Shown: positions 2,766 to 19,883 of the stretch, piece after piece
Numbering within the stretch: position 1 is the first letter of the stretch
Layout: each line of letters starts with the position of its first letter
Assembly (NCBI GenBank): GCA_016180525.1
Contig: JACPBB010000001.1
Location: 11,320-75,319, forward strand
Length of the DNA: 64,000 nt
Direction: 5' to 3'
Source of the DNA: Parcubacteria group bacterium
Lineage (GTDB): Bacteria; Patescibacteriota; Minisyncoccia; Phycocordibacterales; UBA2135
The notes under the pieces: model-generated
Seen by the model: only the letters and a program-made list of their open reading frames with translations
Database searches by the model: none
What the model was told of the DNA's origin: nothing
Translations under genes and position numbers: made by a program

Positions 2766-3338
2766 ATGAAACAAAAAGAGACGGTACTCATGCGACTTCT
2801 GGGCAAAAAAGTTTATCTGCGACCCATGACCGCAGAAGATGTCCACACTCTCAAGAAATGGCTAAATGACCCGGATGTAACAAAATATCTTGATATGACG
2901 ACTCCGTTTATGCGCGGAATACAACAAGATATTATCGGTAATAATTCCCTTCTTTTACAACATACCTTTATCACTGTTGTTAAAGACACCGAGGAGCCGA
3001 TTGGTTTTGGGCGCTTGCAAGAAATAAGTGAAGTTGATAAAAATGCTAAATTTCTGCAGGTTATCGGAGAAAAAAAATATTGGGGTTGTGGATTTGCTTT
3101 CGACGCCCGAATGCTTTTACTGTATTACGCGTTTAACACTTTAAAGTTAATAAAAGTTTACGGAAGAGTATATCGGGAAAATGCTCGTATGTTAAATCAA
3201 GCAAAAAAAGCCGGAGCACGGATAGAGGGTGTTTTAGAAAAGCACAAATTTAGAGACGGAAAATTTCATGACCTTGTCTTAACCGCAACATTTAAAGAAG
3301 GCTGGGAACAAATTTTTGAAAATTATCAAAACTCATGA
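2766..3338 (+). CDS. GNAT family N-acetyltransferase (RimJ/RimL-like)
   Basis: N-terminus VYLRPMTAEDVHTLKKWLNDPDVTKYL and overall length fit the RimL-type GNAT fold. Confidence 0.55.
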   Translation: MKQKETVLMRLLGKKVYLRPMTAEDVHTLKKWLNDPDVTKYLDMTTPFMRGIQQDIIGNNSLLLQHTFITVVKDTEEPIGFGRLQEISEVDKNAKFLQVIGEKKYWGCGFAFDARMLLLYYAFNTLKLIKVYGRVYRENARMLNQAKKAGARIEGVLEKHKFRDGKFHDLVLTATFKEGWEQIFENYQNS

Positions 3339-3386: not shown

Positions 3387-4715
3387 TTAATTAACATTTT
3401 GAAACCACATTTCTTGATACGCAGTTGTCGTACATTTATCAGTTAGTATTGGATTTCCGACAAAATTACATAGTTCTTTCATTTCTGCCTTAGTTTGTGC
3501 TGAATGTGCTATTAAAGCGCCGATACCCTGAACACAACCGGTTTTTAAATCTGCCCCTGGCGCCGAAGTACACAGTGCCTTAGTTTGAGAAAAATCCATT
3601 TCCAGTATCTGTCTTGTAAGTGATGGCTGAAAATACGCACATCGTTCTCGGTGCTCTTTCGGAAGAGTCGCGCAGGTCCGCCATATATTATTTTTATCTA
3701 GTTGGTCTTGCTTTGCAAAAAAGGCATATTCTATAAAGACACCGTCATAGCAATATTGTCTATTGCCTACAGACAGTCCATCGCATAACAAAAGAGTATT
3801 TTTAATATTAAAATCGGTTTCAATAAGAAGCGGGTGTGCAATGCCTTGCAAGCAAGCGATAGCAGAAAAACTTAAGTTGCCAATAGTCTCTGAAAACATC
3901 TTAACGCATTCGTTTTCCACAGTAACGATATCATTTTTGTGTTCCAACAAAAACCCGGTAATAACGCCGTGTTGGCATCCATAGGTAAATTCATGAGTAC
4001 AATAGTTTAAACTCCCGATACCATATTTTTTAAAAAGAGAATTTCCGATAATATGTGCTAATGAATGGGTGTCGACAATTTGTTTCCCATTTTCAAACCC
4101 AACAAAAGTCAAATATTTTAGAGCAATGCTGGGGAATTTGTTGCTTAGCCGGATAATGTGATTTTTTTGCTCGTAAGAATAAAGGGATGCAAATTTTCCT
4201 TTGTTTAGATAAACTAAAATATCATTTATTTTTTTAGAATCAAATGGAGAACTAAACGCAAGTTTATTTTTAAAATCAACTAAACGGGTATGTCTATCTT
4301 CCTCTGCTTCTACATATACTGTTCCGACCATTTCAGGAAATAAATGATCATGATAACTCCACGCCCCTTCAAATGCATAAATAAATGACCATTGTTCGTT
4401 TGGATTGAGTCCGCGACACGCGTCAAATAAGCTTCCCAAGCAATCTCTTGGAGATGTTTGCGGGTAATTGCTGTGAGTTACGTGCTCATCTGACGCTGGC
4501 CAGTGCTTCCGTGTTCCTTTGTTTATAAAAGTAATCGTTTCTCCGGTTTGTACATATGTGTTTTGTGGTATAAATTTAGAGTCGGTTATAACAACCACGC
4601 TTGGGTGACTTTCATATTTGCTCGGAATGAGGAGCGCCATTATAATGAGGGCAATTACTGCGACGCTATATTCTATATATTTTTTCATAATATATTGTGT
4701 TATATATGATAACAA
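3387..4715 (-). CDS. secreted/membrane-anchored Cys/His-rich family protein with N-terminal Cys-less cupredoxin-like domain
   Basis: N-terminal TM helix. Cupredoxin-like block (WPASDEHVTHSNYPQ ... AWSYHDHLFPEMVGTVYV). Family motifs AHIIGNSLF and CTHEFTYGCQHGV. Many Cys. Paralog of 4697..5668 and 12342..19883. Confidence 0.55.
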   Translation of the reverse strand: MLSYITQYIMKKYIEYSVAVIALIIMALLIPSKYESHPSVVVITDSKFIPQNTYVQTGETITFINKGTRKHWPASDEHVTHSNYPQTSPRDCLGSLFDACRGLNPNEQWSFIYAFEGAWSYHDHLFPEMVGTVYVEAEEDRHTRLVDFKNKLAFSSPFDSKKINDILVYLNKGKFASLYSYEQKNHIIRLSNKFPSIALKYLTFVGFENGKQIVDTHSLAHIIGNSLFKKYGIGSLNYCTHEFTYGCQHGVITGFLLEHKNDIVTVENECVKMFSETIGNLSFSAIACLQGIAHPLLIETDFNIKNTLLLCDGLSVGNRQYCYDGVFIEYAFFAKQDQLDKNNIWRTCATLPKEHRERCAYFQPSLTRQILEMDFSQTKALCTSAPGADLKTGCVQGIGALIAHSAQTKAEMKELCNFVGNPILTDKCTTTAYQEMWFQNVN

Positions 4716-5668
4716 AATATTTTCAAAATAAAAAAAGATTTCCTATTTTACTATTGTGCTTTATATTTGTGGTCTTAATTTTTTCATATACGCAATTGTT
4801 TCATCCGTGTCTATATTTTGATGAAAATAATATAAAAACCCAAACAGAACGTTGGGGGGACTGTATTGATGTGTGGGGTGGAAAAGTGGCACATGCCTTC
4901 TTTAAACAGACAAACAAAGTGGTTCCTAATCAATACAAACATATTAACGCGCATATGTTTGGCAATGCCCTTTACAACAATTACAGCCTTGAAAAAGCCC
5001 TTCTCTTTTGCGATTACGCGTATTGGGAAGGATGTTTCCATGAGCTTTTGTCTCGAGCATTTTTAGACGGGGGATATTCCACTTTAAAAAATATTGCCGA
5101 AACATGCAAAAAAATACTCTCTAGCACTTATTCTACAACTTGTCTGCATGGTTTTGGACATGGCCTTATTGCTCTTGGGAAATATACAACTGATGACTTG
5201 CGCGAAGCTCTTGATTTTTGTTCTTTACATTTTTCTGATACAGAAGGGAAAAAAGATGCTTCAAGGCGAGGGTCAGATTATTTTGGAAACGAATGTTACC
5301 ATGGTGTATTTATGGAATATAATGAACGTAATATGTTACCGGAGTTAGGTCCCCGAGAATTAGATTTTAAAAATATATATACGCCATGTGATACATTGGA
5401 TTCTGAATACAAGGCAACGTGCTATCACAGGCTCGCTTTTAATCTGTGGCCTCACAACATATCAAACATAAATATTACTGTTAAGTATAATACACTGATA
5501 TCGTGGTGTCGTGACATTCCCCAAAAAGAATACCATTATTCTTGCGTAAGTGGAGTTCGTACTTCGATGTTTTTTGTCCCAGAAATATCCGCAAAAGAAA
5601 AAAAGAAGGTTTTAAACTTAGTAGATGAGGTCCTCCGAGAAGTACGGGCCTTTTCTGCCCCGATCTAA
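4697..5668 (+). CDS. secreted Cys/His-rich family protein (CxHGxGHG motif)
   Basis: N-terminal hydrophobic segment. Motifs CFHELL and TCLHGFGHGLIALG shared with the paralog family. Confidence 0.5.
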   Translation: MLYMITKYFQNKKRFPILLLCFIFVVLIFSYTQLFHPCLYFDENNIKTQTERWGDCIDVWGGKVAHAFFKQTNKVVPNQYKHINAHMFGNALYNNYSLEKALLFCDYAYWEGCFHELLSRAFLDGGYSTLKNIAETCKKILSSTYSTTCLHGFGHGLIALGKYTTDDLREALDFCSLHFSDTEGKKDASRRGSDYFGNECYHGVFMEYNERNMLPELGPRELDFKNIYTPCDTLDSEYKATCYHRLAFNLWPHNISNINITVKYNTLISWCRDIPQKEYHYSCVSGVRTSMFFVPEISAKEKKKVLNLVDEVLREVRAFSAPI

Positions 5669-5688
5669 CCATCTCAAAAATAAGTACT

Positions 5689-7401
5689 TTATTTAGGAAT
5701 TTGCCTTGTATAGATTATCAAATCGCTCTTTTTAATAATATCTATAATTGCTTGACGCGAATATGTATCTTGTAAATCATTTTTAAGAGATATTAACCCG
5801 TTTTTCTCCAGATTTTTTTCTTTATGAGTAATGAGAAATGGAGTGTCTGTAACAATGCTCTTATTAAAACTCAAAAAGGCTGATGATGGTGCGGCGTAGA
5901 AAAGAAACAAATCATGAAAATCAACCTTTACCCCCAATAACGCAAGTGTTGATAAAAATTTGCTATATCCGGTAACGGCAAAGATAAGCTGGTCCACGTA
6001 TGCTGTTTTTGTGCGATAGAGCGTCAACAACCGTTCAATAAACAATAATTCATTTGTATTGAAATTTGTTTTTAAATCTTTTGCTCCATACAAAAAAGAA
6101 AGGGTGTTTAAAAAAATGACGACGTCATCTTGATACACAATCGGAAAAGCTGTTATTTTTTCCTGGAGTTCAGTAATTGTTTTATTGCCCAAAAACCAAT
6201 CATGTTCGGAGAGCAGGGACCGAATTTTAAGAATTGCCATTATCTTTACAAAATCAGTGCCATAATCCGGACAAGAATAGGAAGTTGGTATTGGTTGATA
6301 CAAAAGAGGAAAGGCCGCATTCGTTTTTTCCTGAAGAGCACGCTGAAGCGGCTTTTCTGTATTTTTTGAAATATGAAAATATAGGTCATTTAAAAGAACT
6401 ATTCTCGGGCTGAATTCACTACCGTATTTCTGCGGCATGACAGTGTAATATGCGGGGGTATCTTCAAGAGCACAGGCGCTGCTCCCGAGAACAATGACCG
6501 GCATGGATTCATACCATTGTTTCTCTGTCTCATTAGATACACTGAGTATTGAGTAGTAATTACGAATTAAAGACGCGTTGCTTTTGATAATTTCAGGAAT
6601 ACTATAAAAATTTTCTTGTTCAGATACTTCTTGTGAATTTAAAAAGGGCTGAAAAGAAGCTGATGCTAAAGAACATTTTTTTATATTCCCATTAAAACAC
6701 TTCATTCTATTGTTTCTTTTTTCGTCAATATCGTATGAAGCATTAATCAGAGTATTTAAAAATGTTACATATGTTTCATTTGAAATAGTTCCTGTTGGAA
6801 GAAAAAAATTTTTCTGGTCATGCTCAGCATATATGTGTTTCATTTTTTCAGCGTTTTTGCGATATATCTTAACCGTTCTCTCCAGTAACGCATCGTATGT
6901 TTTGATGTTTTCGACTGAAGGACGTTCCACTACGTCTCTGCGTGCCTTCTCAAGGTCGGCAATTGAATATAAAAAATCAGTCGGGTATAGATTTGACCTT
7001 AAAATTTTTTCCTCTCGTGGATAATAATACCCCGCAAAATTATCAAAAGATTGTTCCATACGAGCGATAGAGTTCCTCAATGTTTCTATGTCAGTTTCCG
7101 GAATAGCAAGAAACGGCTCTACGCGGGTCAAAAGTGAGTAATATCCTGCGCGAAGCGCCACAACTTCGCGCTTAAGAGTAGGAGGCGCCTCAACAAAAAC
7201 AATGCTGCCTTCAGAAATAGTATAGTGTTTCTCGTCTATAACAATTTCAGGAAGAATAAATTGGGCAAGCTCTTTTGAAAAAAACTTTTTTTCTTTTTCC
7301 AACTGAACTGTATTTTTAAATACGCTGACATAAAAAACCAATAATATAAAAAAACTTAGAATTATCGGTATACATACTCGGCGCTTTAACTGATACTTCA
7401 T
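5689..7401 (-). CDS. hypothetical membrane-anchored protein (570 aa)
   Basis: Long ORF with N-terminal TM helix. Last gene of a 4-gene minus-strand string (8738->5689). Confidence 0.45.
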   Translation of the reverse strand: MKYQLKRRVCIPIILSFFILLVFYVSVFKNTVQLEKEKKFFSKELAQFILPEIVIDEKHYTISEGSIVFVEAPPTLKREVVALRAGYYSLLTRVEPFLAIPETDIETLRNSIARMEQSFDNFAGYYYPREEKILRSNLYPTDFLYSIADLEKARRDVVERPSVENIKTYDALLERTVKIYRKNAEKMKHIYAEHDQKNFFLPTGTISNETYVTFLNTLINASYDIDEKRNNRMKCFNGNIKKCSLASASFQPFLNSQEVSEQENFYSIPEIIKSNASLIRNYYSILSVSNETEKQWYESMPVIVLGSSACALEDTPAYYTVMPQKYGSEFSPRIVLLNDLYFHISKNTEKPLQRALQEKTNAAFPLLYQPIPTSYSCPDYGTDFVKIMAILKIRSLLSEHDWFLGNKTITELQEKITAFPIVYQDDVVIFLNTLSFLYGAKDLKTNFNTNELLFIERLLTLYRTKTAYVDQLIFAVTGYSKFLSTLALLGVKVDFHDLFLFYAAPSSAFLSFNKSIVTDTPFLITHKEKNLEKNGLISLKNDLQDTYSRQAIIDIIKKSDLIIYTRQIPK

Positions 7402-7405
7402 GCTA

Positions 7406-7834
7406 TTATAGCGGGTTTACGGCTATAACCTCCGCAACAAAATACCCGTCTTGAATATCATATAAAATTTGAACTTTGTCGCCAGCATATAGATCACTTA
7501 TTGTTGTGTCTTTTATATCTAAAAAGACCAGTGCATTATTCTCAAAATGAGGGATATTTTTTACCACGCGTGTTTCTTCATTAAACACAATTTTAATTTT
7601 TTGATTTTCACGGGTCGGATGATAGTGATTGTTGATTTTCACAATCATATATTTTTCTTCTGGGTTAATGAAAAAAATATTTCCGCCCCTGAAGACTTCT
7701 TCTGATGAGAACGGCGTATAAAGCACTGGTTTATTTTTTTCAGCCATCAAAAATAAAAAAAATAATAAACTCAAACAAAAAACCATGATAATGACAAAAA
7801 AATAACATATTCTTCTTTTTGTTAAAGGAGGCAT
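7406..7834 (-). CDS. hypothetical small membrane-anchored protein
   Basis: ORF with N-terminal TM helix. Only a 4-nt gap to the downstream gene. Confidence 0.4.
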   Translation of the reverse strand: MPPLTKRRICYFFVIIMVFCLSLLFFLFLMAEKNKPVLYTPFSSEEVFRGGNIFFINPEEKYMIVKINNHYHPTRENQKIKIVFNEETRVVKNIPHFENNALVFLDIKDTTISDLYAGDKVQILYDIQDGYFVAEVIAVNPL

Positions 7835-7849
7835 TTGTTTAACATAGTT

Positions 7850-8347
7850 TTACTTTTTATACGTTTTATATTGAATGATTTGTGTTGCGTAAAATCTTTC
7901 TTTATTTCTCTGTACGTAGATAACCAATAAATCTCCCGAAGAAAGTTCATTTAAAAATGATATATCTTTATCATAATAAAAAAACTTATTTGAAATAGTA
8001 TAGCCTTCACGAACAGAGACGCGTGTAGAATCATCAAAATAAACTTTTGTTTTACCGGACACTTGAAAAAATGGATTTGCAATTTGACTCAAAATAATAG
8101 ACTGTTCTTCAAAATTTACCAAATCCAGAGTGACCCACAGCTTCTCTGTTTTTGATTTCATCTGGCTTAATTTGATATCAGAATTTCTTTCATTCACAAG
8201 CGCGGTCTGTTCATTGGTATTTGTTGAAAAAAGAAAGACATGCCCCAAAATAATGCCTAAACTAAAACTGGCAAAAAACAACAATAAGCAGTATTTAAAA
8301 TAAATATTCTCCATGGAGTATAAAGGGCGTGTACTTGGAATTATCAT
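7850..8347 (-). CDS. hypothetical small membrane-anchored protein (true start probably the Met at ~8314)
   Basis: ORF with N-terminal TM helix after an internal Met. Co-directional string. Confidence 0.4.
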   Translation of the reverse strand: MIIPSTRPLYSMENIYFKYCLLLFFASFSLGIILGHVFLFSTNTNEQTALVNERNSDIKLSQMKSKTEKLWVTLDLVNFEEQSIILSQIANPFFQVSGKTKVYFDDSTRVSVREGYTISNKFFYYDKDISFLNELSSGDLLVIYVQRNKERFYATQIIQYKTYKK

Positions 8348-8738
8348 TTAACGAACTATAAACAATGACATACTCACCGGGACGAATATTTTCAATAGAG
8401 CTCTCAATAGTGTCTTTTATGCTATACACTATATCGTCTTTTGAAAAAATAAGAGCTCTTTGAACAATAGTATTTTTATCAAAATAAATTTCATTGATGA
8501 CCCTTTTTTCCGGTGAAAATCGACTTCGTTCTTCAAATTTAATCGTATTTTTTTTAAGATCAACAGACTGAAGAATTCCATATTGCCTTCCGATATATGT
8601 TATTATTCCAGTCTTAATATTTTTATTAACTTGATGTTGCAATACAAAGGATACAGCCAAAAAACCAATTAAAAATCCTGATAATAAAAAAAGGAGGAGC
8701 CCCCAGAAATTGATTCTATTTTTAAACATAATACACAA
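8295..8738 (-). CDS. hypothetical small membrane-anchored protein
   Basis: ORF with N-terminal TM helix. First gene of the string. Confidence 0.4.
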   Translation of the reverse strand: MCIMFKNRINFWGLLLFLLSGFLIGFLAVSFVLQHQVNKNIKTGIITYIGRQYGILQSVDLKKNTIKFEERSRFSPEKRVINEIYFDKNTIVQRALIFSKDDIVYSIKDTIESSIENIRPGEYVIVYSSLNDNSKYTPFILHGEYLF

Positions 8739-8769
8739 TCTATATTCTATACTATACTATAATTAACAC

Positions 8770-10437
8770 ATGATTTCGTCTCAAAGGACAGTGGCTATTT
8801 TTATTTTTTTTATAGGCTCTTTTTTATTGCCGCTTTTTTTAATTCCCGGATACTCTTATCTATTCTCAGAAGCGGGTAAATTCGTACTTTTTTTTATTAC
8901 CATACATGTATCGGCGGGGTTTTTATTATATTCATGGTGGAAAAACAACTCTATTGACCTGCCCGCCCATCCTCTTTTTGCATCTCTATACTGTATCTTT
9001 CTTTTTATTTTTCTTTCATCGCTTTTTTCAAAGTCATATTATGTTTCATGGATATACTTTATAAATCATGAAAACACATTTTTCTTTTTTTATCTTTTGT
9101 TTCTCGTACTGTTTTTGTCTATATATTTTTTAAAATATAAGCAAGTAATTTTATATATATATGAGATTATTCTTTTCTCCTTCGTAACCCTCATCCCATT
9201 AAGTGGGGCAATGAATTTTTTTAATAAATTGGGCTTCATTAAAAATATAGAATCATTTCTTGACACAACAACTAATGTCATTATATTTTCAGGACTTGTT
9301 GCCGTTGTTTCATTGCTTTTATATATATTTTCAGAAAGTAAGATGATGCGCGTGTTTCCAATTATTACACTTGTCCTTTCATCACTGATTCTCTTTTGCG
9401 CATTTAAAGAAGAGGCAAAACTTGCCCTTTCTTTTCCCGTTGAAAATATGGCTGTCTTACAAGAAACAATAAAAGAATCTCCCCTGCGAGCACTTTTAGG
9501 AAGTGGGCCTGGAACTGTTCAATATCAATACGATCTATACGCACCTGAAGAAACTCCCACACGATCGTGGAGTAGCAGTCTTTTAATCCAATTTGGACTT
9601 TTAGGTGGATTTGCGTGGATTGTATTTTTTATTTTATTTTTGTATTTTGGCATATGGTCATTTTTGGAAAAAAATGCTTTGGCAATTGGAAATTTTATTG
9701 TTGCTCTATACTTGTGGATTTTTGCCCTTCTATATCCAGTAAATTTTACCCTCGTTGCCTTTACATTTTTATTTACAGGCATTTGTATCACACTCCAAAT
9801 CATTAAAGATTCTGAAAACAAGATCATTATTCCATTACAAAAAAGAAGCTCTCGCGTTGTGTTTGCATGTTTGGTGGGCATTGTACTTTTTACAAGCACG
9901 CTTGGTATTATAGTTTATACAAAAAAATCAATTTCATATGCTTTTTATCAGAATGCTCTTGTGATTGAAAGTAAAGAATTATTTTTAGACACCGTGAAGC
10001 GGGCATTGCAGATTTCAAAAGAGGACATATATTACAGAAAGCTCGCGGATTTTTATATTAAAAAAACAGAGATGGCACAGGGCCTTGTTCTCTTTACTGA
10101 ACAGAATAAAAAAATAGTTGAATATGGCGGAAACGCCGTTTCTTATGCCAATGAAGCCGTTCGTATAAATCCGAGCGATTACAGAAATTGGGGGACGCTC
10201 GGAAACATATACCTTGTATTTGAAAGGTTGGGCGTACGCGGAGGATACGAGCTTGGAAAAAATGCTTATTCAGAAGCACAAAAACTAAGTCCCAAAAATG
10301 AAATATTGCTCTTGGAGCGCGCGGAGTTGGCGTTTCTTGCCAAAGATATTCATTTTAGGGAACTATTGAAAGAATTACTGCAATATAATCCACATAACAT
10401 AGAGGCTCAAAAAAGATTGCGTGAGTGGGGATTGTAA
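8770..10437 (+). CDS. polytopic membrane protein, O-antigen ligase (Wzy_C)/O-oligosaccharyltransferase-like, with C-terminal TPR repeats
   Basis: >=10 hydrophobic helices. Central loop GSGPGTVQYQYDLYAPEE...RSWSSSLLIQFGLLGG resembles a Wzy_C loop. The C-terminal ~150 aa has TPR-like repeats. Confidence 0.4.
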   Translation: MISSQRTVAIFIFFIGSFLLPLFLIPGYSYLFSEAGKFVLFFITIHVSAGFLLYSWWKNNSIDLPAHPLFASLYCIFLFIFLSSLFSKSYYVSWIYFINHENTFFFFYLLFLVLFLSIYFLKYKQVILYIYEIILFSFVTLIPLSGAMNFFNKLGFIKNIESFLDTTTNVIIFSGLVAVVSLLLYIFSESKMMRVFPIITLVLSSLILFCAFKEEAKLALSFPVENMAVLQETIKESPLRALLGSGPGTVQYQYDLYAPEETPTRSWSSSLLIQFGLLGGFAWIVFFILFLYFGIWSFLEKNALAIGNFIVALYLWIFALLYPVNFTLVAFTFLFTGICITLQIIKDSENKIIIPLQKRSSRVVFACLVGIVLFTSTLGIIVYTKKSISYAFYQNALVIESKELFLDTVKRALQISKEDIYYRKLADFYIKKTEMAQGLVLFTEQNKKIVEYGGNAVSYANEAVRINPSDYRNWGTLGNIYLVFERLGVRGGYELGKNAYSEAQKLSPKNEILLLERAELAFLAKDIHFRELLKELLQYNPHNIEAQKRLREWGL

Positions 10438-10489
10438 GGGTATCCACAGTTGTCGACGATTAGATTAGCATGTATAATGATATGCAAAT

Positions 10490-11056
10490 ATGAAAAGTGC
10501 TGAAAAAATGTCATTGTTCATCGGAGGATTATTTTTAATGCTCATTCCATTTTTGGCGTCTGGTCAATCCGGGTCAACAAAATTAACTGATTCAGTAACA
10601 ATTGGAGGTAGTATAAATATTACCGGCTCTATTGCAAAAGGAAGCGGTACGCTTGTCATAGATCATCCGCTTGATCCAGCGAATAAACTGCTCTATCATT
10701 CGTTCGTTGAATCTCCGGATGTTAAAAATATTTACGATGGTGTTGTGAAATTAAATAGAAACGGAGAGGCAAAAGTAAAACTACCAAAATATTTTGAAGC
10801 GCTTAATAAAGATTACCGGTATCTTGTGACCCCAATTGGAAAACCATCTCCCAATCTTTACATTAAACAAGGTGTTGAAAATAATATGTTTATTATTGCT
10901 GGAGGGGAAGCGGGAATAAAAGTCTCCTGGCAAGTAACGGGTATCCGCCGTGACCCACATATTATTGCAAACCCAATTATTCCTGAAATTGAGAAGGGGA
11001 CCAGTGCGTTAGTAGATAAAGGAGTTTATATATTACCTGAAATATATGGAAACTAG
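10490..11056 (+). CDS. small secreted protein, tandem family member 1
   Basis: Signal peptide MSLFIGGLFLMLIPFLASG. Shares a near-identical block GSG(T/S)(L/F)VIDHPLDPANKLLYHSFVESPDVKNIY with the two downstream copies. Confidence 0.55.
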   Translation: MKSAEKMSLFIGGLFLMLIPFLASGQSGSTKLTDSVTIGGSINITGSIAKGSGTLVIDHPLDPANKLLYHSFVESPDVKNIYDGVVKLNRNGEAKVKLPKYFEALNKDYRYLVTPIGKPSPNLYIKQGVENNMFIIAGGEAGIKVSWQVTGIRRDPHIIANPIIPEIEKGTSALVDKGVYILPEIYGN

Positions 11057-11534
11057 ACAAACACCTGTTGTTATAATTATCACATCCGGAATTATGGGGG
11101 CAATTTTTCTTTTCCCGTATATTGCGTCGGCAATCTCTCGTATTAATGAAAGTGTTACGGTGCGAGGAAACGTGGTTGTTACCGGCGCGCTTGCAAAAGG
11201 TTCCGGCTCATTCGTCATAGACCATCCACTTGATCCTGCTAATAAATTACTCTATCATTCGTTCGTTGAATCTCCGGATGTTAAAAATATTTATTTTAGA
11301 TATCAATTCTCCTCTCTTGAAAAACCTTCTCCTAATCTTTATATAAAACAAGAAATACGAAATAATAGATTTGTAATCTCCGGAGGTGAACCAAAAATTA
11401 GAGTATCGTGGCAAGTAACAGGCGTGAGACATGACCCGTATATTCTTAAAAATCCGATTATACCAGAGGTAGAAAAAGGGTCTAATGAGTTGGTAAATAA
11501 GGGAGAATATGTATTTCCTGAATTATATGACTAA
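11046..11534 (+). CDS. small secreted protein, tandem family member 2 (internal ~25-aa deletion relative to member 1)
   Basis: Same conserved block. The middle segment DGVVKLNRNGEAKVKLPKYFEALNKD is absent. Confidence 0.5.
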   Translation: METRQTPVVIIITSGIMGAIFLFPYIASAISRINESVTVRGNVVVTGALAKGSGSFVIDHPLDPANKLLYHSFVESPDVKNIYFRYQFSSLEKPSPNLYIKQEIRNNRFVISGGEPKIRVSWQVTGVRHDPYILKNPIIPEVEKGSNELVNKGEYVFPELYD

Positions 11535-12265
11535 AACAACATTTAAAAAAAAGAATAACACTAACAAACTATTTTTTCTCTTTTTGATAGGTTTTTTGTT
11601 TTATTTTCAATTACCATCTATAGCAAAAGCTGCTTATAGTCAGGGTTATTACTATGCTCAAGGTTACTACTATGGCGAGGGTTATTACTATGCAGAAGGC
11701 TATTACTATGCTCAAGGAACATATAGAACAACTTTTACTACTAATACCACATTTACCCAAAATTTAACGATTACCGGAGAATTAAAAAAAGGTTCCGGCT
11801 CATTCGTCATAGACCATCCACTTGATCCTGCTAATAAATTACTCTATCATTCGTTCGTTGAATCTCCGGATGTTAAAAATATTTAGAGTTGTAACGCTTG
11901 ATGAAAAAGGTGAAGCAGTAGTCGAGCTTCCTGCGTATTTTGAAGCACTCAATAAAGATTTTAGATATCAGGTTAAGCCAATAAATAAATCGTCTCCTAG
12001 TTTGTATATAAAAAGCGAAATAAAGGATAATCAATTTATGATTGCCGGAGGTGAACCAAAAATTAGAGTATCATGGCAAGTAACAGGCGTGAGACATGAC
12101 CCGTATATTCGCGCAAACCCAATTATTCCCGAGACAAGAAAGGGGCGAAATGAAATAGTAAACAGGGGAGAGTATTTGTTTCCCGAGCTGGCAGGAAAAT
12201 ATATTGAAACCCAAATATCTTTATGGGAAAAAATGGTATTCTTCTTTAACTCTCTTTTCAAGTAA
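11509..12265 (+). pseudogene. tandem family member 3, interrupted by an apparent 1-nt deletion (ORFs 11509..11886 and 11822..12265)
   Basis: Copy 1 reads NIYDGVVKLNRNGEA. Copy 3 reads NI* in frame, then continues as RVVTLDEKGEAVVELPAYFEALNKDFRYQVKP in the +1 frame. The N-terminal part carries a Tyr-rich (GYYYA)x4 repeat. Confidence 0.45.
11641..11720 (+). repeat. 15-nt tandem repeat encoding (GYYYA)x4-5 within tandem-family copy 3
   Basis: cagggttattactatgctcaaggttactactatggcgagggttattactatgcagaaggctattactatgctcaagga translates to QGYYYAQGYYYGEGYYYAEGYYYAQG. Confidence 0.7.
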
Positions 12266-12289
12266 GATTATATAGATTTTAAAAACAAA

Positions 12290-12322
12290 ACAGTATATTG
12301 TATATGCAATATACTGTTTTTT
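12290..12322 (+). terminator. intrinsic terminator after the tandem secreted-protein genes
   Basis: Perfect palindrome acagtatattg-tatatg-caatatactgt followed by tttttt. Confidence 0.65.
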
Positions 12323-12341
12323 GTGTCATGCATATCTAAAT

Positions 12342-13367
12342 ATGAAATTGTTACCATATCAAAATATATTATTTATAGCTGTAATTATCATAGGAGGTGT
12401 TTTGCTCCATAAAAATCTGTCGTCGGAATCATTTTTAGGATTTTCTCTAAAAAAAGAACAAAAATATTGGTCTGAACACATGAGCACTAAAAACGCCGAA
12501 CAGATTTCTGAAATATTCCAAAAGAAATATAAGAAGCTCAATCCCGCTGAACAACATGCCGCAGCCCACATCGTTGGCGAAGCTATTTATAAAAAACAAA
12601 GTTATTCGGGAATTGTGTTTTGTGATTACGTAATTGGAGACGCTGGATGCGTTCATGAGTTGATGACGTTGGCAATTTTAGAAAATGGACTTAATATAAT
12701 ACCATCAATAAATAAAGAATGCTTGAATTTGCCAAGCAACAAAAGAACAGCCTCGTGCCAACACGGCGTGGGCCATGGAATATTGTTTTATTTGGGATAC
12801 GATTATAAAAGTTTACTCAAAGGGCTTGAACAATGTTCCCTAATTACCGCTCCATATCTTAGAGAGAGTGTCCGCTACGTGGAAGGATGCGTTGGGGGTG
12901 TGCTTATGGAATATAATTCAAACCCGTCATTAAATAAAAGCCAAAAACCAAGAGTTTTTGCGCTAGATTCCGTATACGTTCCGTGTACTTCTCTGGGAGA
13001 AGAGATGCGCTCAGTTTGTTATTTTTGGCAAACTCAGTGGTGGAATGCAAATTTAAAAGATTATAATACTATAGGAAAATATAAAAAAATGGGAGAACTA
13101 TGCACTGTTATAGTTAATGCGAATGAAAAAACATGGTGTTTCCGTGGAATCGCGCATGCAATGATCCCAGACACTAAGTGGATAGTAAAAAAAGCATTAC
13201 ATTTTTGCAATTCCATAACATTAGACGCGGGAAGACAGGAATGCCAGGCATACGCCGCTTTTCTTTTTAAAGATGAGGGGTTAGAATCCGTATGTAATTT
13301 TGTAAATGATGAAGAAAAAAAAGAGTGTGTTGAAATATCGTCTTCTCTTCTTGCAAGCGAGAGTTAA
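12342..13367 (+). CDS. secreted Cys/His-rich family protein
   Basis: Signal/TM MKLLPYQNILFIAVIIIGGVLL. Motifs AAAHIVGEAIY, GCVHEL, SCQHGVGHGILFYLG. ~18 Cys in repeated C-x(8-12)-C units. Confidence 0.55.
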   Translation: MKLLPYQNILFIAVIIIGGVLLHKNLSSESFLGFSLKKEQKYWSEHMSTKNAEQISEIFQKKYKKLNPAEQHAAAHIVGEAIYKKQSYSGIVFCDYVIGDAGCVHELMTLAILENGLNIIPSINKECLNLPSNKRTASCQHGVGHGILFYLGYDYKSLLKGLEQCSLITAPYLRESVRYVEGCVGGVLMEYNSNPSLNKSQKPRVFALDSVYVPCTSLGEEMRSVCYFWQTQWWNANLKDYNTIGKYKKMGELCTVIVNANEKTWCFRGIAHAMIPDTKWIVKKALHFCNSITLDAGRQECQAYAAFLFKDEGLESVCNFVNDEEKKECVEISSSLLASES

Positions 13368-13373
13368 ATTATC

Positions 13374-14444
13374 ATGAAATTTCAATCTGAAAAAAACATA
13401 ATAATTTTTCTTGTGATTATTTCCGGAATCTTTTTTTTATATAACAAAAATATTCCGGAGTTTTTTGTAGGTACACCTCTAGGCCCTCAGCTCTCAAATA
13501 TTGGCAATAGTCGTGAAGATCTTCAAATTAAAAGGGATCATTGGAAAAGCCGTATAAACGAAATTGGTCCAGAGAGCGCCTACTCTGAATTCTTACAAAC
13601 ATACAACCATATGAATTTTGAGAAACAGCATACTTTTGCGCATATCATGGGTGAGCTTCTTTATGAAAAAGTAGGAGTTAATGGTTTAGCAATATGCGAT
13701 AAGTCATTCGCGTTTGGCTGTTTCCACGGTTTTTTTACGGGAGCAATTAGCAAAGAGGGAATTGGAGTTATAGCTAAGCTCGACAATGCCTGTCTTAAAA
13801 AATTTGGACCATATGGAACAGGGTGTCAACACGGTATTGGGCACGGTATTTTAGAGCACGTAGGACCGGATTCACTGGTTAAAGGGCTTGAGGCATGTAG
13901 ATTCACTACTCAGATAGAATCATCGCATTTTGGTTGCACCTCCGGTGTTTTTATGGAATATAATACACAAACTATTTTTACTAGAGATAATGTCTATCAA
14001 AAAGTGAGAGACTTAAAAGAACAAAACCCTTTTGAGCCCTGTAATACACTAGTACCAAGCAAATTTAAAAACTCTTGTTATTTTGAAATAAGCGCATGGT
14101 GGATGCAGGTATTTAACAAAGATCATATAAAAGTAGGCCAACTCTGCCAAATGATACAAGGGGAAGAATATAGAAAGTCGTGTTATTTGGGATTTGGTAC
14201 GGTAAGCGCACATCTTGCTCAATATAATGTTTCAGATGCAATAAAAATATGTAAAGAAACGTCAGGCGGAAACATAGAAGCTGAATTATTATGCCGAGCA
14301 AGCGCTTCATGGTCTTTTTGGGCGATGCCGGGGCATAAACAAGAGTCTCTTGCCCTGTGTGATAATTTTGAAGATGAAGAAGTTGAATTTCGTTGTGTGA
14401 GCGAATCTGACCTTATCGGAACAGGAGAAAAATTCAATAAATAA
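13374..14444 (+). CDS. secreted Cys/His-rich family protein
   Basis: N-terminal TM. Motifs FAHIMGELLY, GCFHGFFTG, GCQHGIGHGILEHVG. Confidence 0.55.
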   Translation: MKFQSEKNIIIFLVIISGIFFLYNKNIPEFFVGTPLGPQLSNIGNSREDLQIKRDHWKSRINEIGPESAYSEFLQTYNHMNFEKQHTFAHIMGELLYEKVGVNGLAICDKSFAFGCFHGFFTGAISKEGIGVIAKLDNACLKKFGPYGTGCQHGIGHGILEHVGPDSLVKGLEACRFTTQIESSHFGCTSGVFMEYNTQTIFTRDNVYQKVRDLKEQNPFEPCNTLVPSKFKNSCYFEISAWWMQVFNKDHIKVGQLCQMIQGEEYRKSCYLGFGTVSAHLAQYNVSDAIKICKETSGGNIEAELLCRASASWSFWAMPGHKQESLALCDNFEDEEVEFRCVSESDLIGTGEKFNK

Positions 14445-14456
14445 TTTTGTATATCA

Positions 14457-15932
14457 ATGGGAAAAAAAACTTTACGCATATTAATTATAGTAATTTTTTT
14501 AATTGTATTGTCGGGAATATACTATACTCTTTTTGAGACCCAAAAAAATAAAAATCATATCATTGAGCTTCGTGAAACCGGTTTTTATCCAAAAACAATT
14601 ACGATAATTCAAGATGATGCTGTCTTGTTTAGAACAAAACTTAATGAAACATTCTGGCCGGCAAGCGATCCGCATCCAATTCATAATTATTACCCTGAAG
14701 AAAATTTTGACCCCCAAAGAGCCCTTGGGCCCGATGAAGAATGGCAGTTTACATTTACACAAGCCGGCACGTGGAGATATCATGACCATTTAAATCCATC
14801 TTTACGGGGAGAAATTACAGTACTTCCAAATAAAAGCTATACTGCGTATTTACCGTGTAAAAAAGAAACCGGACAATGTTTTGACGAACTTATACGAAAA
14901 ACAGTTTCTGAAAAAGGAATAGCCGCTGCGTACGCGCTTTTTACCGAAACATACGCAAAAGGAGAGTTACCGCGTGCATGCCACTGGACAGCGCACCAGA
15001 TAGGGGAAGAAGCGTATGAGTTATTTAAGGGCGGGGAAACATTTCCCATAACAGGCGAGACATCATATTGCGGATATGGATTTTTTCACGGTTTTCTTGA
15101 GAGCTTGTTGCGGGAAAATCCCGATGTTAAATTTGCTCTTTCTTTTTGCGATGAGGCTGAAAGGCAATTGGGTATATTAGGACTTCAGAACTGCTATCAT
15201 GGCATAGGGCATGGATTTACCGAAGACCCTCCGGATCCATCCGTATGGGGCAATTTTGAAGGAATGGTAGCACCTGGCATAGAGATATGCGAATATTTAT
15301 TTAAAAATTCATTTACAAACCTTAATTTATGCCTTACGGGCGTATTTACCGTCCCTGTCGGATTTGCGGAAAAGAAAGAGTATGGGTTGTCGCTAAGCCC
15401 CAGTGACCCATTTGCCATATGCAGAGAGCAGCCATACAAATACCAAAAAGCCTGCTATGGAGAAATTACACCAAAACTGGACTCTATTTTAGAAGGTGAT
15501 TTTTCTCAATTTCCAAAACACCTTGCCGGTATTACTGATGAAAAAATAAGAAATTTAATTATTTGGGTTGCTCCATCTGTCATGGTCGCGCGTGAGATTC
15601 TTAAAGACGATTATGGTGGGTTTATAGAAGTGTGCAGAAACAACTTTGTCGGTATTGAAAGAGAAATTTGCTGGGGCGGAATAATACTCGGATTTTTTAC
15701 GCATGGAGAGCCTGAAAAACAATATAAAAAAGGAATTTCATTCTGTAAATCACAGCTGTTTAATGCTTCGGAAAAAAAATTCTGCTATAAACAATTATTT
15801 CACAGAATGCACGCTGAATACACAGAGGATAAAATAAAAAATATTTGCACTAATGAAGTTTCGGAAACATATCGCTCTTCATGCTTATCAAAAAATCAAC
15901 AATCCATATACAAAGACCCTGTTTTTGAATAA
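14457..15932 (+). CDS. secreted Cys/His-rich family protein with N-terminal Cys-less cupredoxin-like domain
   Basis: N-terminal TM. Cupredoxin-like block (TITIIQDDAVLFRTKLNETFWPASDPHPIHNYYPE ... AGTWRYHDHLNPSLRGEITV). Motifs CHWTAHQIGEEAY, YCGYGFFHGF, NCYHGIGHGF. Confidence 0.55.
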   Translation: MGKKTLRILIIVIFLIVLSGIYYTLFETQKNKNHIIELRETGFYPKTITIIQDDAVLFRTKLNETFWPASDPHPIHNYYPEENFDPQRALGPDEEWQFTFTQAGTWRYHDHLNPSLRGEITVLPNKSYTAYLPCKKETGQCFDELIRKTVSEKGIAAAYALFTETYAKGELPRACHWTAHQIGEEAYELFKGGETFPITGETSYCGYGFFHGFLESLLRENPDVKFALSFCDEAERQLGILGLQNCYHGIGHGFTEDPPDPSVWGNFEGMVAPGIEICEYLFKNSFTNLNLCLTGVFTVPVGFAEKKEYGLSLSPSDPFAICREQPYKYQKACYGEITPKLDSILEGDFSQFPKHLAGITDEKIRNLIIWVAPSVMVAREILKDDYGGFIEVCRNNFVGIEREICWGGIILGFFTHGEPEKQYKKGISFCKSQLFNASEKKFCYKQLFHRMHAEYTEDKIKNICTNEVSETYRSSCLSKNQQSIYKDPVFE

Positions 15933-15933
15933 C

Positions 15934-17409
15934 ATGCAAAAATTTAAAATAAAAAAATATCTTTTCGGACTTTTCATTATCATTCCGATTGTCGGACTAA
16001 GCGGGTATCACGCATATCAAAAATCAACCCCTGCAAATGTTATATTCTCAGAAATTGGAACATACGGAGCAACATTAACGGAGCAAGGTTTTATGCCAAA
16101 AGAAATTACTATTCCAATTGGCTCAACTATCGTTTTTTCCACAACACTAGATAAATTTTTCTGGCCAGCATCAAATTTTCATCCATCTCATGCAATATAT
16201 CCTGAATTTGACGCTAAAAATCCAGTTCCATCCGGAGAAAGTTGGAAATTTCAATTTAAAGAAGCTGGAACATGGGAATATCATGACCATCTATCTCCTT
16301 ACTTTGGAGGAACGATAAGAGTAACGGATGAAATAAATACAACATTAAAAGAAAACCTATGTGAAAATAACAAAAAACAATCAGCATGCTGGCGGTCCCT
16401 TTTATTTTCTCAATTAAAAAATAATGGTATTGACACAACATTTTCTATCCTTGAGAGCCTGTACAAAACAGAGTTAGGATTTAGAGAAACGTGCCATGGA
16501 ATTACCCACGATCTTGGGATTGAGTCATACCAGTATTTTTTAAAAAACAAAGATTTAATTTTAACTACAAAATCATCGGCATGCGCGTATGGATTTTATC
16601 ATGGATTTATGGAGGCGCTTCTTACTCATACGGGTGACATACAACAAGCGCGTGAATTTTGTCTTTTTATTGATAAAAAAATAACCCCAGATATACCAGA
16701 TGCGACACTGCAGTGTTTCCATGGCATTGGACACGGAATTATTGACATGCAGGTCACTTTCAACGGTCGTCAACAGGACAAAGAAATGCTTATAAAAGAT
16801 GCGTTGTCATTTTGTGAAAGCGCTTCTCGGACAGACGAGGAGCTCTATCGATGTGCTTCTGGGATATACAATAGCGTTGCAAACATATACATACTTGAAA
16901 AAAACTGGTCCTTAAAACAAGATGAGATTATCTCTCTTTGTACGCATCAGCCAGAAAAATACAAAGAGAGTTGTTACGGGAATATGAACTCTCTTATGTT
17001 TCGCGCCGCGGATAACAATTTAGGAAAATCACTCATTTTTATAAACGAAATAGAGGAACAATATAGAGAATCTGCTGTCCGCTATCTTTCAAATTTAAGC
17101 GTTATATATACAATTCTGCAGGATAAAGATTACGACGAGGAGGTGGGGGCATGCCGTTCTTTGCCGGACATTCTTTATACAGCATGCCTTGAAGGTCTTG
17201 TACACGGGCTTCTAGAGCATGGACAGCCCAGAGAGGAATATAAAAAAGTAATTGATTTCTGCGAGGCTCCAATCCTTACCATGTCCGAAACGGAGAAATG
17301 CTTTGAATATGGACTTTCAAATCTTGGAGGCTGGTATTTAAAAGAAAAATCGCAAGAAATTTGTAATGAAATACCCGAAACGTATAAACAATATTGTAAG
17401 CAAGTTTAA
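15934..17409 (+). CDS. secreted Cys/His-rich family protein with N-terminal Cys-less cupredoxin-like domain
   Basis: Start moved to the ATG at 15934 (MQKFKIKKYLFGLFIIIPIV TM segment), which removes an 80-nt overlap. Cupredoxin-like block (FWPASNFHPSHAIYPEF ... AGTWEYHDHLSPYFGGTIRV). Motifs CHGITHDLGIESY, CAYGFYHGF, QCFHGIGHGII. Confidence 0.55.
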   Translation: MQKFKIKKYLFGLFIIIPIVGLSGYHAYQKSTPANVIFSEIGTYGATLTEQGFMPKEITIPIGSTIVFSTTLDKFFWPASNFHPSHAIYPEFDAKNPVPSGESWKFQFKEAGTWEYHDHLSPYFGGTIRVTDEINTTLKENLCENNKKQSACWRSLLFSQLKNNGIDTTFSILESLYKTELGFRETCHGITHDLGIESYQYFLKNKDLILTTKSSACAYGFYHGFMEALLTHTGDIQQAREFCLFIDKKITPDIPDATLQCFHGIGHGIIDMQVTFNGRQQDKEMLIKDALSFCESASRTDEELYRCASGIYNSVANIYILEKNWSLKQDEIISLCTHQPEKYKESCYGNMNSLMFRAADNNLGKSLIFINEIEEQYRESAVRYLSNLSVIYTILQDKDYDEEVGACRSLPDILYTACLEGLVHGLLEHGQPREEYKKVIDFCEAPILTMSETEKCFEYGLSNLGGWYLKEKSQEICNEIPETYKQYCKQV

Positions 17410-17414
17410 TTTTT

Positions 17415-18593
17415 ATGGAATCAATATATAAAAAAAATGTTCTGTTGCCTTTTCTCTTTTTGTTCGTGGTAGCGATGATTATTTTTTACATTAAACCAAA
17501 CTCTTCACTTGCACATCACGCAGCATCTATTTTGCAAATATGCGCAACAGAAGAATATAAACCAGCTTGCTACGATAGAGAAATACCCAAATTGATGGAC
17601 ACCGAGCTTTCAATGGAAAATGCGTTTGCTGTTACGAAACTGATTCAACAAAAAGATGATTCATATTTTTACTGCCATGTATTGGGACACAACTTGAGCG
17701 CGAAAGAAACTGCCAAAGACCCTTCAAGGTGGAAAGAAGTTATTGCTCGCACTCCAAGCGGTATGTGTTCAAACGGAGGCATCCATGGTGCTTTTCAGGA
17801 AAGGTTTAGAGCTGAAGCACTGCCAGAGGCAAGTGTTGCTGAATTAGAGCCCATTCTTACTGATATTTGCAATAAACGAGAAAACTGGAACCCGACACGA
17901 CTGGAACAGGCAACGTGCACGCACGCCGTGGGACATCTAGTGATGTACGTTACAGGCGGGGATATTCATAAATCTCTGGCACTCTGTGAAAAAGTCGCAT
18001 TTAACGAAGAGGGGTATGATTTTAAACAAATTTGTTTTGACGGAGCGTTTATGCAAATATTCCAGCCGCTTGAGCCGGAAGATTACGTACTCATAAAAGG
18101 GAGGGAACAGACACGAGAGACCGTTAATTCATTTTGTGAAAAATTTACGGGAGCACGCTATGGATCATGTCGTTCGGAAAGCTGGCCACTTTTTCACGAA
18201 GAAATAAAAACAGCTCCAGGTCTTACTCGTTTTTGCTCTTTTCAAAAAGATTTTGAACAAAAAGAGCGCTGTTATTCAGGAATGTTTTACGTATTAACGG
18301 CAGAATTTAATTTAGACCCCATTAAAATTGAAAATCTTTGCGAAGCATTTCCTCAAGAGTTGAAAAATAAATGTTTTGCAAATGCCGCATCTCGGATGAT
18401 TGAAACTGATTGGAGCAAAATTCCTGACGCAATTTCTTTGTGCGCTATTTCAGAAAAACACGGAGCAGGAGATGCGTGCTATAGAGAATTATTGCTATAT
18501 TCTAACTATAATTTTCACCCAAGATCTAAAGAATTCTATTCGCTATGTCGGCATTTACCTAATGGGTGGGAAGGAAAGTGTCTTTCAGGGTAA
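17415..18593 (+). CDS. secreted Cys/His-rich family protein
   Basis: N-terminal TM. Motifs YCHVLGHNLS, CSNGGIHGAF, TCTHAVGHLVMY. Confidence 0.5.
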   Translation: MESIYKKNVLLPFLFLFVVAMIIFYIKPNSSLAHHAASILQICATEEYKPACYDREIPKLMDTELSMENAFAVTKLIQQKDDSYFYCHVLGHNLSAKETAKDPSRWKEVIARTPSGMCSNGGIHGAFQERFRAEALPEASVAELEPILTDICNKRENWNPTRLEQATCTHAVGHLVMYVTGGDIHKSLALCEKVAFNEEGYDFKQICFDGAFMQIFQPLEPEDYVLIKGREQTRETVNSFCEKFTGARYGSCRSESWPLFHEEIKTAPGLTRFCSFQKDFEQKERCYSGMFYVLTAEFNLDPIKIENLCEAFPQELKNKCFANAASRMIETDWSKIPDAISLCAISEKHGAGDACYRELLLYSNYNFHPRSKEFYSLCRHLPNGWEGKCLSG

Positions 18594-19883
18594 TTGTGTT
18601 AATTTTCCGCACTCATTTCGTATATCTTTAGGAAATTGTTTACAAATCTTTCCAATATCTTCTGGTTCAAAAAGTATGGGGATTTTTTTTATAACCTCTC
18701 CATAACAAAAATTACGAAGCCCTTTTTCTTCTAAGGTTGGATTAGAGCAAAAAACAATTGGGTGTTTGTAAGTTTTTCCTGGTATACCAAACTCGTATAA
18801 TGCGTGCACAATTCCTTTAACGCACCCCTCGTATACTTCCTGTTCAAAAAACTCACACTGCGCAAGAATTCTTTGATATTGGCTTTCTTTCTCGTGTTCT
18901 AGATATATTACATTGTTTAAAACATTATAAAGCATGACTTTTTTAAATTGCCAGTCACCTTCAATTGATTGAATTTTATTAATTACGGGAAAAGTATTTT
19001 TATCGGACAATGTATACATTGTATAAAGTGAGTGAGCCATAATTTTATTGCAAGTAGCATATGCGTTGATTTTTAATCCTTCGCATATTGAAAACGGGTC
19101 TTCTGCGCTCAAGGAAATATCATAACCATTTTTATTACCGTGACCATCAGAATCTTCTTGTATAAAGCGAAGCATCGCTCCGAGTACGCCGGTTTTGCAA
19201 GCTTCTTTTTCATCTTCATTCGCAAGCAAGAGTGCTTCACATTGTTCCACTGGTTTTTCAACGAATACATTTAAATTGCCCCATTTACTTCTTGGTGTTT
19301 GTTCAATGTTTGAATACAAAAGCCCGTGTCCGGCACCAAGGTAACAAATATTACCGATGGATCTGATTTTATTGTTGTAGCGTGTTTTTACGTTTTCACA
19401 TATTTCTGTTACAAATTTTGAACTTGCGTTATCTTGTACTAGGTGACCTACAACAGCATGAGAAAAACCGTAGCCGCACGCTAACATTGATGGTGAAAAA
19501 TCAATAAGAGATATATCCTTTGTATTAAGATAAAGATTATAATATGTGAAATCACCTAAAGAATGCATTAACCGATGGCATCCGTCTTCATAAAAAATCG
19601 CTTTTTTAAAAAAATCTGACACATATGCAGCGCTTACTATGCGCAAGCCAGCACGAGGACCGTCACGCAGTGTTTCATTTTCCATAATTGTATACAGACA
19701 ATCAATTTTTTTATCGTTATCTTTAATAATCTTGCAATTATTAAGTAAGGCGACTGCCCTTATGTCAGATAGCATGTCTGTTTTAAATATTAAAAAAGCT
19801 ACAGCAAGCAATAAAACTATTACAAAAAATGCAAAAGGTGCATTCATCACTTTTTCGGCATAAAGTCTATTAATTATGTTCAT
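18585..19883 (-). CDS. secreted Cys/His-rich family protein (convergent, 9-nt overlap with upstream paralog)
   Basis: N-terminal TM. Motifs CHRLMHSLGDFTY, ACGYGFSHAVVGHL, ICYLGAGHGLLYS. Confidence 0.5.
   Translation of the reverse strand: MNIINRLYAEKVMNAPFAFFVIVLLLAVAFLIFKTDMLSDIRAVALLNNCKIIKDNDKKIDCLYTIMENETLRDGPRAGLRIVSAAYVSDFFKKAIFYEDGCHRLMHSLGDFTYYNLYLNTKDISLIDFSPSMLACGYGFSHAVVGHLVQDNASSKFVTEICENVKTRYNNKIRSIGNICYLGAGHGLLYSNIEQTPRSKWGNLNVFVEKPVEQCEALLLANEDEKEACKTGVLGAMLRFIQEDSDGHGNKNGYDISLSAEDPFSICEGLKINAYATCNKIMAHSLYTMYTLSDKNTFPVINKIQSIEGDWQFKKVMLYNVLNNVIYLEHEKESQYQRILAQCEFFEQEVYEGCVKGIVHALYEFGIPGKTYKHPIVFCSNPTLEEKGLRNFCYGEVIKKIPILFEPEDIGKICKQFPKDIRNECGKLTQLP

Follow-up and report, generated by a model that had tools for sequence, protein, structure and literature searches.

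The Hcp proteins of Helicobacter are secreted alpha/alpha-repeat solenoids with one disulfide per repeat of ~35-36 residues, and they form paralog families within a genome. Among copper proteins, multicopper oxidases (MCOs) use the two His that flank the Cys of their H-C-H motif to ligate copper at a domain interface, and the CuB site of PmoB/AmoB is a His-only cupredoxin copper site made from a His and an HxH motif. Here we describe eight paralogous genes that combine such ingredients in a Parcubacteria group bacterium. They lie in a 64,000-nucleotide stretch of DNA (assembly GCA_016180525.1, contig JACPBB010000001.1, positions 11,320 to 75,319), the whole of which was analysed and is referred to below as the window. 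The ingredients are of known kinds, namely an alpha-solenoid, per-repeat disulfides as in Helicobacter Hcp, and a cupredoxin combined with a helical domain as in EfeO. The helical domain itself is previously undescribed; it has no Pfam or NCBIfam model, and no solved relative was found. The family is probably an unrecognised cell-surface metalloprotein system.

A family of eight paralogs

The eight genes, and the codons of the five His discussed further below, are located as follows.

3387..4715 (-): paralog 1, 'A type', with an anchor helix, a cupredoxin domain and then the helical domain
4697..5668 (+): paralog 2, alpha-like, without cupredoxin, divergent from paralog 1
12342..13367 (+): paralog 3, alpha-like, without cupredoxin, opening a five-gene co-directional array
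13374..14444 (+): paralog 4, alpha type, without cupredoxin, modelled with AlphaFold2
13629..13844 (+): codon span of the five His in paralog 4 (H86, H90, H118, H153 and H157)
14457..15932 (+): paralog 5, beta type, with cupredoxin, modelled with AlphaFold2
15934..17409 (+): paralog 6, beta type, with cupredoxin (FFWPASNFHPSH...YHDHL)
17415..18593 (+): paralog 7, gamma type, without cupredoxin, with 18 Cys, the most divergent of the eight
18585..19883 (-): paralog 8, delta type, without cupredoxin, convergent with paralog 7 and overlapping it by 9 bp

A hidden Markov model (HMM) built from the eight copies matches those eight and no other protein in the window, and models built from seven copies recovered each left-out eighth with E values from 8e-19 to 6e-50. 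Pairwise identity among the copies is as low (14-31%) as a previous sequence-only reading of the window had stated. That reading had also described shared motif blocks, and these do align as conserved columns: a MAFFT alignment of the eight contains 15 invariant columns, among them the second His and the Gly of the first motif, the G..H of the GxxHG block, the Cys and the second His of CxHGxGHG, and eight further Cys. The description of the blocks needs some revision. The first is conserved as described, but its full form is H-x3-H-x2-G, the upstream His having been overlooked, and it is not complete in all eight copies, since the 17415 copy has Ser for Gly and no Tyr. The third block is exact in five copies; it varies in paralog 7 (CTHAVGHL), and its first His, the fourth of the five conserved His, is gone in paralog 1 (Q; the block reads CLQGIAHP) and in paralog 8 (L; the block reads CYLGAGHG). 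The proteins are indeed rich in Cys (3.9%, versus 0.7% in the other open reading frames (ORFs) of the window) but barely so in His (2.9% versus 2.0%), and the repeated Cys pairs are real, with a spacing of C-x(7-15)-C and a period of ~35 residues instead of the C-x(8-12)-C that had been proposed.

No named family had been assigned to these proteins, and profile searches of Pfam, NCBIfam and PDB bear this out. Pfam and NCBIfam contain no curated family for the helical domain, neither in the window copies nor in less divergent members from outside the candidate phyla radiation (CPR), and the best match in a PDB sequence-profile search of this domain had an E value of 0.02. None of the eight matched a PADLOC anti-phage model at E <= 0.01, the window gave no Rfam match, and no description of the family was found in literature searches. 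The sole known-family signal came from weak Cupredoxin_1 matches (Pfam, NCBIfam, PADLOC and PDB profile searches). A LanC-like identity, prompted by the CxHG motif, was rejected, there being neither a LANC_like Pfam match nor a double alpha-barrel.

All eight ORFs are present at the coordinates first reported, and intergenic space is close to zero, with gaps of 1-12 bp among the five co-directional genes (12342 to 18593). The '20-kb investment' in one family was an overestimate: the coding total is 9,828 nt, and the 16.5-kb span also holds 6.6 kb of unrelated genes. The eight paralogs occupy 9.8 kb, or 15% of the window, in a reduced genome. In GenBank six of them are annotated as 'hypothetical protein' (HYT93_00130 to 00155, on a 344,533-bp contig), with starts identical to those reported earlier. 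For the divergent pair the GenBank products of 433 aa (P0002) and 320 aa (P0094) correspond to starts at 4688 and 4706, which are probably the true starts of paralogs 1 and 2, and not 4715 and 4697. The two start codons are ~17 bp apart with the GenBank starts, and the genes overlap by 19 bp if the longest ORFs are used; with starts so close, both promoters must lie within the coding region of the adjoining gene.

A helical domain with predicted disulfide staples, and its five histidines

Every window copy has one N-terminal hydrophobic helix and no second transmembrane (TM) segment, and an N-terminal hydrophobic segment was found in 321 of 336 family proteins, in agreement with the extracytoplasmic location suggested earlier. 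AlphaFold2 models of two products were built on an alignment of 79 sequences. The model of paralog 5 (predicted local distance difference test (pLDDT) score 88.9) comprises an anchor TM helix (residues 3-30), a cupredoxin beta-sandwich (residues 34-123, nucleotides 14556-14825) and a helical solenoid of ~17 helices (residues 139-484, nucleotides 14871-15908). The model of paralog 4 (pLDDT 89.2, predicted template modelling (pTM) score 0.83) has an anchor helix (residues 5-26) followed by an all-alpha solenoid with at least 14 helices over residues 47-350. With 14-17 helices in tandem hairpins, the models have the elongated all-alpha domain of a generic alpha-solenoid, and the only structural neighbours were ARM, HEAT, TOG, TPR or designed solenoids, all with low scores.

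Seven slices of ~35 residues (R1-R7) are mutually homologous in profile-profile comparison (hhalign probability up to 94%), and each Cys pair bridges the end of a short helix and the start of the next long helix, with one pair per hairpin. The domain is thus a repeat solenoid of Cys-stapled hairpins, the long helices of which start with C-x-x-G. The number of Cys outside the anchor is even in 327 of the 336 family proteins (p = 2e-84), and variable Cys come and go pairwise, Cys116 being present in 275 of the 276 copies with Cys108, a count that is confounded by subfamily phylogeny. Six Cys pairs are 94-100% conserved in a sample of ~390 domain copies (150 library representatives, 81 word-search matches and all fetched loci). 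The N-terminal anchor, the Cys parity and the pairwise variation together point to an extracytoplasmic, fully disulfide-bonded ectodomain. Since the counts are even and each hairpin has its own pair, the Cys almost certainly serve as structural disulfide staples and do not belong to a Cys/His metal site, and their connectivity would be within repeats. MdbA-like oxidoreductase and VKOR, two enzymes of extracytoplasmic disulfide formation, are enriched in CPR genomes (PMC6744442) and could be the source of the disulfides; no thioredoxin-like CxxC oxidoreductase, nor one of the MdbA/VKOR type, is encoded within the window.

The His blocks and Cys pairs had previously been joined into one metal-binding or redox module. 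While the Cys leave this module for a structural role, a cluster of five His stays as a candidate site, being conserved in 98%, 99%, 99%, 98% and 98% of the ~390 copies, with flanking Gly that are 85-100% conserved. The five correspond to H86, H90, H118, H153 and H157 in the paralog 4 product and to H176, H180, H211, H248 and H252 in that of paralog 5. All five are kept in six of the eight window copies, including paralog 2 (KHINAH, GCFHE and CLHGFGHG). H118 and H153 are both located two residues after a Cys (Cys+2) in their repeat, on the long helices of two adjoining repeats, H157 lies one turn beyond, and H86 and H90 form an H-x3-H stripe, together with G93 and Y97, on the helix before. From the Cys+2 positions in neighbouring repeats and the geometry of the solenoid, the five His are expected to lie along a single face at the domain's N-terminal end. 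Judged from sequence, we regard this constellation as a candidate metal or active site.

In many members the first block reads HExxH (NAHEFAHIIGN), and the domain could in principle be a zincin-like metallohydrolase, i.e. a secreted zinc peptidase or amidase with a further His or Glu as the third ligand. HEFAH is the majority form of the first motif in the cupredoxin-bearing A subfamily, and a downstream Glu is found in GVFME. However, it is HxxxH that is invariant, and the Glu of HExxH occurs in some subfamilies only: its position is taken by Q, D, T, N, K or G in others, and by W, G, S, T, A, I, V or R in the eight window copies, none of which has the Glu. The Glu of GVFME is only 50% conserved, and no Pfam or NCBIfam peptidase family matches. 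With the HExxH Glu neither conserved nor present in any window copy, zincin membership was rejected and a zincin-like hydrolase appears improbable.

Cupredoxin partners, ordered cassettes and possible function

A genuine cupredoxin domain, in which the site is a non-blue H-D-H, is present in three of the eight window copies (paralogs 1, 5 and 6), a feature that the sequence-only reading did not contain. In paralog 1 the cupredoxin segment reads KHWPASDEHVTH...YHDHL and includes an extra Cys pair (C92/C100). The domain has the cupredoxin beta-sandwich and is homologous in fold and sequence to amicyanin and plastocyanin. Of the amicyanin ligands, His53 aligns with the His preceding WPAS, a position occupied by Phe in two of the three window copies, Cys92 aligns with the Asp of the invariant H-D-H, and nothing conserved corresponds to His95 or Met98. 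In all 70 of the cupredoxin-bearing sequences examined Asp takes the place of the type-1 Cys ligand, and the His-Cys-His-Met (or Gln) copper ligand set is not found. In place of the type-1 site there is an invariant set consisting of WPAS-x2-H, often with another His three residues on, and H-D-H, the latter aligning with the H-C-H motif of MCOs in a profile alignment (9cck). Since the type-1 Cys is replaced by Asp, the domain cannot be a blue copper site, even though its fold is homologous to that of blue copper proteins.

This bears on the names under which the family has appeared. About a dozen members are called 'plastocyanin' by JGI, and in studies of CPR metabolism the products of 'plastocyanin' genes have been taken to donate electrons to NirK (PMC5581439; PMC12931201). 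The cupredoxin-bearing members would then be plastocyanin-type blue-copper electron carriers, e.g. donors to NirK, which would be in line with the JGI names, with the fold and sequence homology to amicyanin and plastocyanin, and with the cupredoxin-to-NirK transfer proposed for CPR in the same papers. Apart from the Asp in 70 of 70 sequences and the non-conserved loop His and Met, this is contradicted by the Phe in place of the N-terminal His ligand in two of three window copies, by the fact that the domain is always joined to a helical domain of 330 residues, needless for a soluble carrier, and by the lack of nirK among the ORFs scanned. We consider such a carrier very improbable indeed, and with the Cys ligand missing the 'plastocyanin' label appears wrong, and is not justified from the sequences, for members of this family.

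An HMM scan of 1.84 billion cluster representatives (50% identity) returned 6,621 proteins at E <= 1e-3, of which 5,164 pass E <= 1e-10, with up to seven domain copies per polypeptide. CPR bacteria dominate overwhelmingly among the named sources (Parcubacteria/Paceibacterota, Nomurabacteria, Kaiserbacteria, Levybacteria, Daviesbacteria and Saccharibacteria). With a degenerate DNA pattern for CYDGVFME[NK], for which ~0.1 chance matches are expected, 30 loci were retrieved, all confirmed by HMM, and these also include Aenigmatarchaeota (DPANN), a metagenome-assembled genome (MAG) of Methanosarcinales, Methylocystis rosea SV97, Longimicrobium, Solirubrobacterales and Chitinophagaceae. Cupredoxin is fused N- or C-terminally in many members, and in a rare relative (P0079) cytochrome c takes its place. 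Other fusion partners are GH3 with HEAT/LRV (P0082), FG-GAP (P0090), alpha/beta-hydrolase (P0171) and a PMT_2 GT-C membrane domain (L012).

Two of these sources deserve a comment. The loci L012, L013 and L017 are labelled 'uncultured Gammaproteobacteria', and these labels on MAG contigs may be wrong; the L013 member is low-GC, 64-72% identical to unnamed proteins and 52-57% identical to its named relatives (Patescibacteria and Levybacteria). Methylocystis rosea SV97, a cultured methanotroph, has one alpha-type member (L002, 2849-4120) with a C-terminal (T/E)PYP repeat tail and no obvious signal sequence in frame, a TM-like segment being located upstream in a different frame; this member could be a pseudogene or a horizontal acquisition.

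Each window copy is closer to a relative in another genome (40-56% identity) than to its own paralogs (22-31%), as expected from the old duplications that had been proposed. The notion of an expanded family, in the sense of a lineage burst, did not hold, and what we find are ancient subfamilies kept in conserved order and sometimes fused. On an unrelated 77-kb metagenome contig (L001), which has 13 family members in a single array, the order 14770 / 15717 (with cupredoxin) / 17484 / 18656 matches the window order 13374 (alpha) / 14457 (beta, with cupredoxin) / 15934 (beta, with cupredoxin) / 17415 (gamma), and orthologs of paralog 7 in other genomes are the last gene of cassettes. Saccharibacteria loci have a second recurring cassette, in which an A type with cupredoxin is followed by gamma and then alpha. 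Gamma and alpha are fused in a protein of 753 aa (L022), and A and alpha in proteins of ~810-970 aa from CPR and archaea. The conserved order and the fusions indicate that the subfamilies act together and are not redundant, and they may also assemble physically.

The explanation that we tentatively favour, and to which we give somewhat less than an even chance, is a surface module that is membrane-tethered, disulfide-stapled and probably heteromeric, with a His-ligated metal centre as its functional site and a non-blue cupredoxin or, rarely, a cytochrome c as accessory. The eight genes would encode subunits of a membrane-anchored extracytoplasmic system built on a single, hitherto undescribed domain, an alpha-solenoid with about seven helical hairpins of ~35 residues, each locked by one disulfide. 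The first three repeats would present the five His on an H-x3-H helix, then a G-x-x-H-G long helix, then a C-x-H-G-x-G-H-G helix, and this cluster would bind one or two transition-metal ions (Cu, Fe or Zn) and serve as the functional site. The A/beta (cupredoxin), gamma and alpha subfamilies would assemble as a hetero-oligomer on the cell surface, and the H-D-H cupredoxin would be an accessory non-blue metal or electron-transfer site, replaced by cytochrome c in the rare relative. The fusions to these two electron-transfer modules are counted in favour of the metal site. A more far-reaching version, which we regard as unlikely, is a previously unrecognised extracytoplasmic multi-subunit metalloenzyme class characteristic of CPR and DPANN, with a His-ligated mono- or binuclear Cu or Fe centre that would lie in the stapled solenoid and be supplied by the non-blue cupredoxin or cytochrome c modules; it might carry out a surface redox reaction, e.g. 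scavenging of O2 or reactive oxygen species, the oxidation or capture of metals, or an oxidative attack on polymers of the host envelope.

Several observations weigh against a metal-centred surface module. Paralogs 1 and 8 are without the fourth of the five His, the Glu of GVFME, present in half of the ~390 copies, is the sole conserved acidic residue, and five of the eight window copies have no cupredoxin. The convergence of the five His in space is a prediction from the solenoid geometry, and a direct-coupling analysis of contacts between the His helices (434 domain copies) returned indel and register artefacts only. No metal transporter, chaperone or redox partner is conserved beside the family genes in the neighbourhoods examined. 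Conserved order and fusions show functional linkage, which is not physical assembly, and the GH3, alpha/beta-hydrolase, FG-GAP and PMT_2 partners are as compatible with a binding or scaffold role as with a redox role.

The last point belongs to a different explanation, in which the proteins are non-catalytic surface scaffolds or adhesins, i.e. disulfide-hardened solenoids that bind host-cell or cell-wall ligands, with paralogs diversified for different targets in the episymbiotic CPR and DPANN and a His cluster that is ligand-binding or structural. The alpha-solenoid class is typical of binding proteins, and nothing but ARM, HEAT, TOG, TPR and designed repeats matched the models. Arrays of up to 13 paralogs per locus, up to seven domains per polypeptide, fusions with FG-GAP repeats, GH3, an esterase and a GT-C membrane enzyme, enrichment of the family in episymbiotic lineages, and other surface proteins and type IV pilus genes among the neighbours are all in line with such a role. 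On the other hand, conservation of the five His and of several Gly reaches 98-100% between subfamilies with an overall identity of only 14-30%, as is typical of a chemical site and not of a diversifying binding surface. Orthologous subfamilies are 40-72% identical between genomes, without a sign of rapid antigen-like diversification, and the recurrent association with cupredoxin or cytochrome c would be left unexplained. Binding proteins of this kind are in our view unlikely, though far from negligible, and the probability that is left by the four readings weighed here (metal-centred module, scaffold, zincin and plastocyanin) belongs to functions outside them.

CPR and DPANN make up a large share of microbial diversity, and their surface biology is almost unknown. 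The family corrects the annotation of CPR 'plastocyanins' that are used as NirK donors in metabolic reconstructions, and it is relevant to episymbiont surfaces, to disulfide-dependent extracellular folding in CPR and possibly to a new metal site. It is also a well-defined target, with high-confidence models, small soluble ectodomains and clear point mutants.

Neighbouring genes and comparison with known systems

No non-family gene is consistently adjacent to the family in the CPR, Methylocystis, Longimicrobium, Solirubrobacterales and 'Gammaproteobacteria' MAG loci. In the window, the genes directly upstream of paralog 1 (643-3338 (+)) encode a protein without Pfam match (643-1485), a protein with an AMP-binding match (1472-2731) and then a GNAT acetyltransferase, and they have no evident link to the family. 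Between the two paralog arrays (7406-8738 (-)) there are three tandem genes for small N-terminally anchored proteins of 142, 165 and 147 aa (7406-7834, 7850-8347 and 8295-8738); no Pfam match was obtained for the two that were scanned, 7406-7834 and 7850-8347. The trio is adjoined by genes for a 570-aa protein that matched no family (5689-7401) and for a protein with several TM segments and a TPR region at its C terminus (8770-10437).

At 10490-12265 (+) a tandem array encodes four small secreted proteins that are paralogs of another kind and match no Pfam or PHROG family. They share GSGxxVIDHPLDPANKLLYHSFVESPDVKNIY ... PSPNLYIK ... VSWQVTGxRxDPxI..NPIIPExEKG; the second copy (11046-11534) is without the middle segment, and the third is split into two overlapping ORFs (11509-11886 and 11822-12265) by a frameshift or an assembly error. 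Further away, a GC island at ~39700-41420 (GC content 0.56 versus ~0.37 around it) may be foreign DNA. It contains a single ORF of 566 aa (39718-41418 (-)) with a Lys/Ala-rich C-terminal tail and no Pfam match, and is flanked by a gene for an MraY-like glycosyltransferase and one for a metallo-beta-lactamase/RMMBL protein (possibly RNase J-like).

Among known systems, EfeO/EfeM of EfeUOB iron uptake likewise combine a cupredoxin with a helical metal-binding domain, which is an imelysin/M75 domain there. Membership in EfeO/Peptidase_M75 (imelysin-like) was rejected, as the family gives no M75 Pfam match and has the motifs HxxxH, GxxHG and CxHGxGHG instead of HxxE; EfeU or DyP neighbours were not found in the gene neighbourhoods examined. 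Compared with amicyanin and plastocyanin, the family has the Asp of an invariant H-D-H in the place of the Cys ligand, is without the His and Met of the C-terminal ligand loop, contains a WPAS-x2-H-P-x-H insertion that brings in new invariant His, and has a membrane-tethered cupredoxin joined to a large helical domain. With the MCOs it shares the position of H-D-H, which aligns with their H-C-H, but it has one cupredoxin domain, no T1 Cys, no added HxH motifs and no MCO Pfam match. Membership among Sel1-like repeat proteins and Hcp was rejected as well, with no SLR (PF08238) or TPR profile match. The likeness to Helicobacter Hcp lies in the architecture, both being secreted proteins of stapled helical repeats of ~35 residues that occur as several paralogs in one genome.

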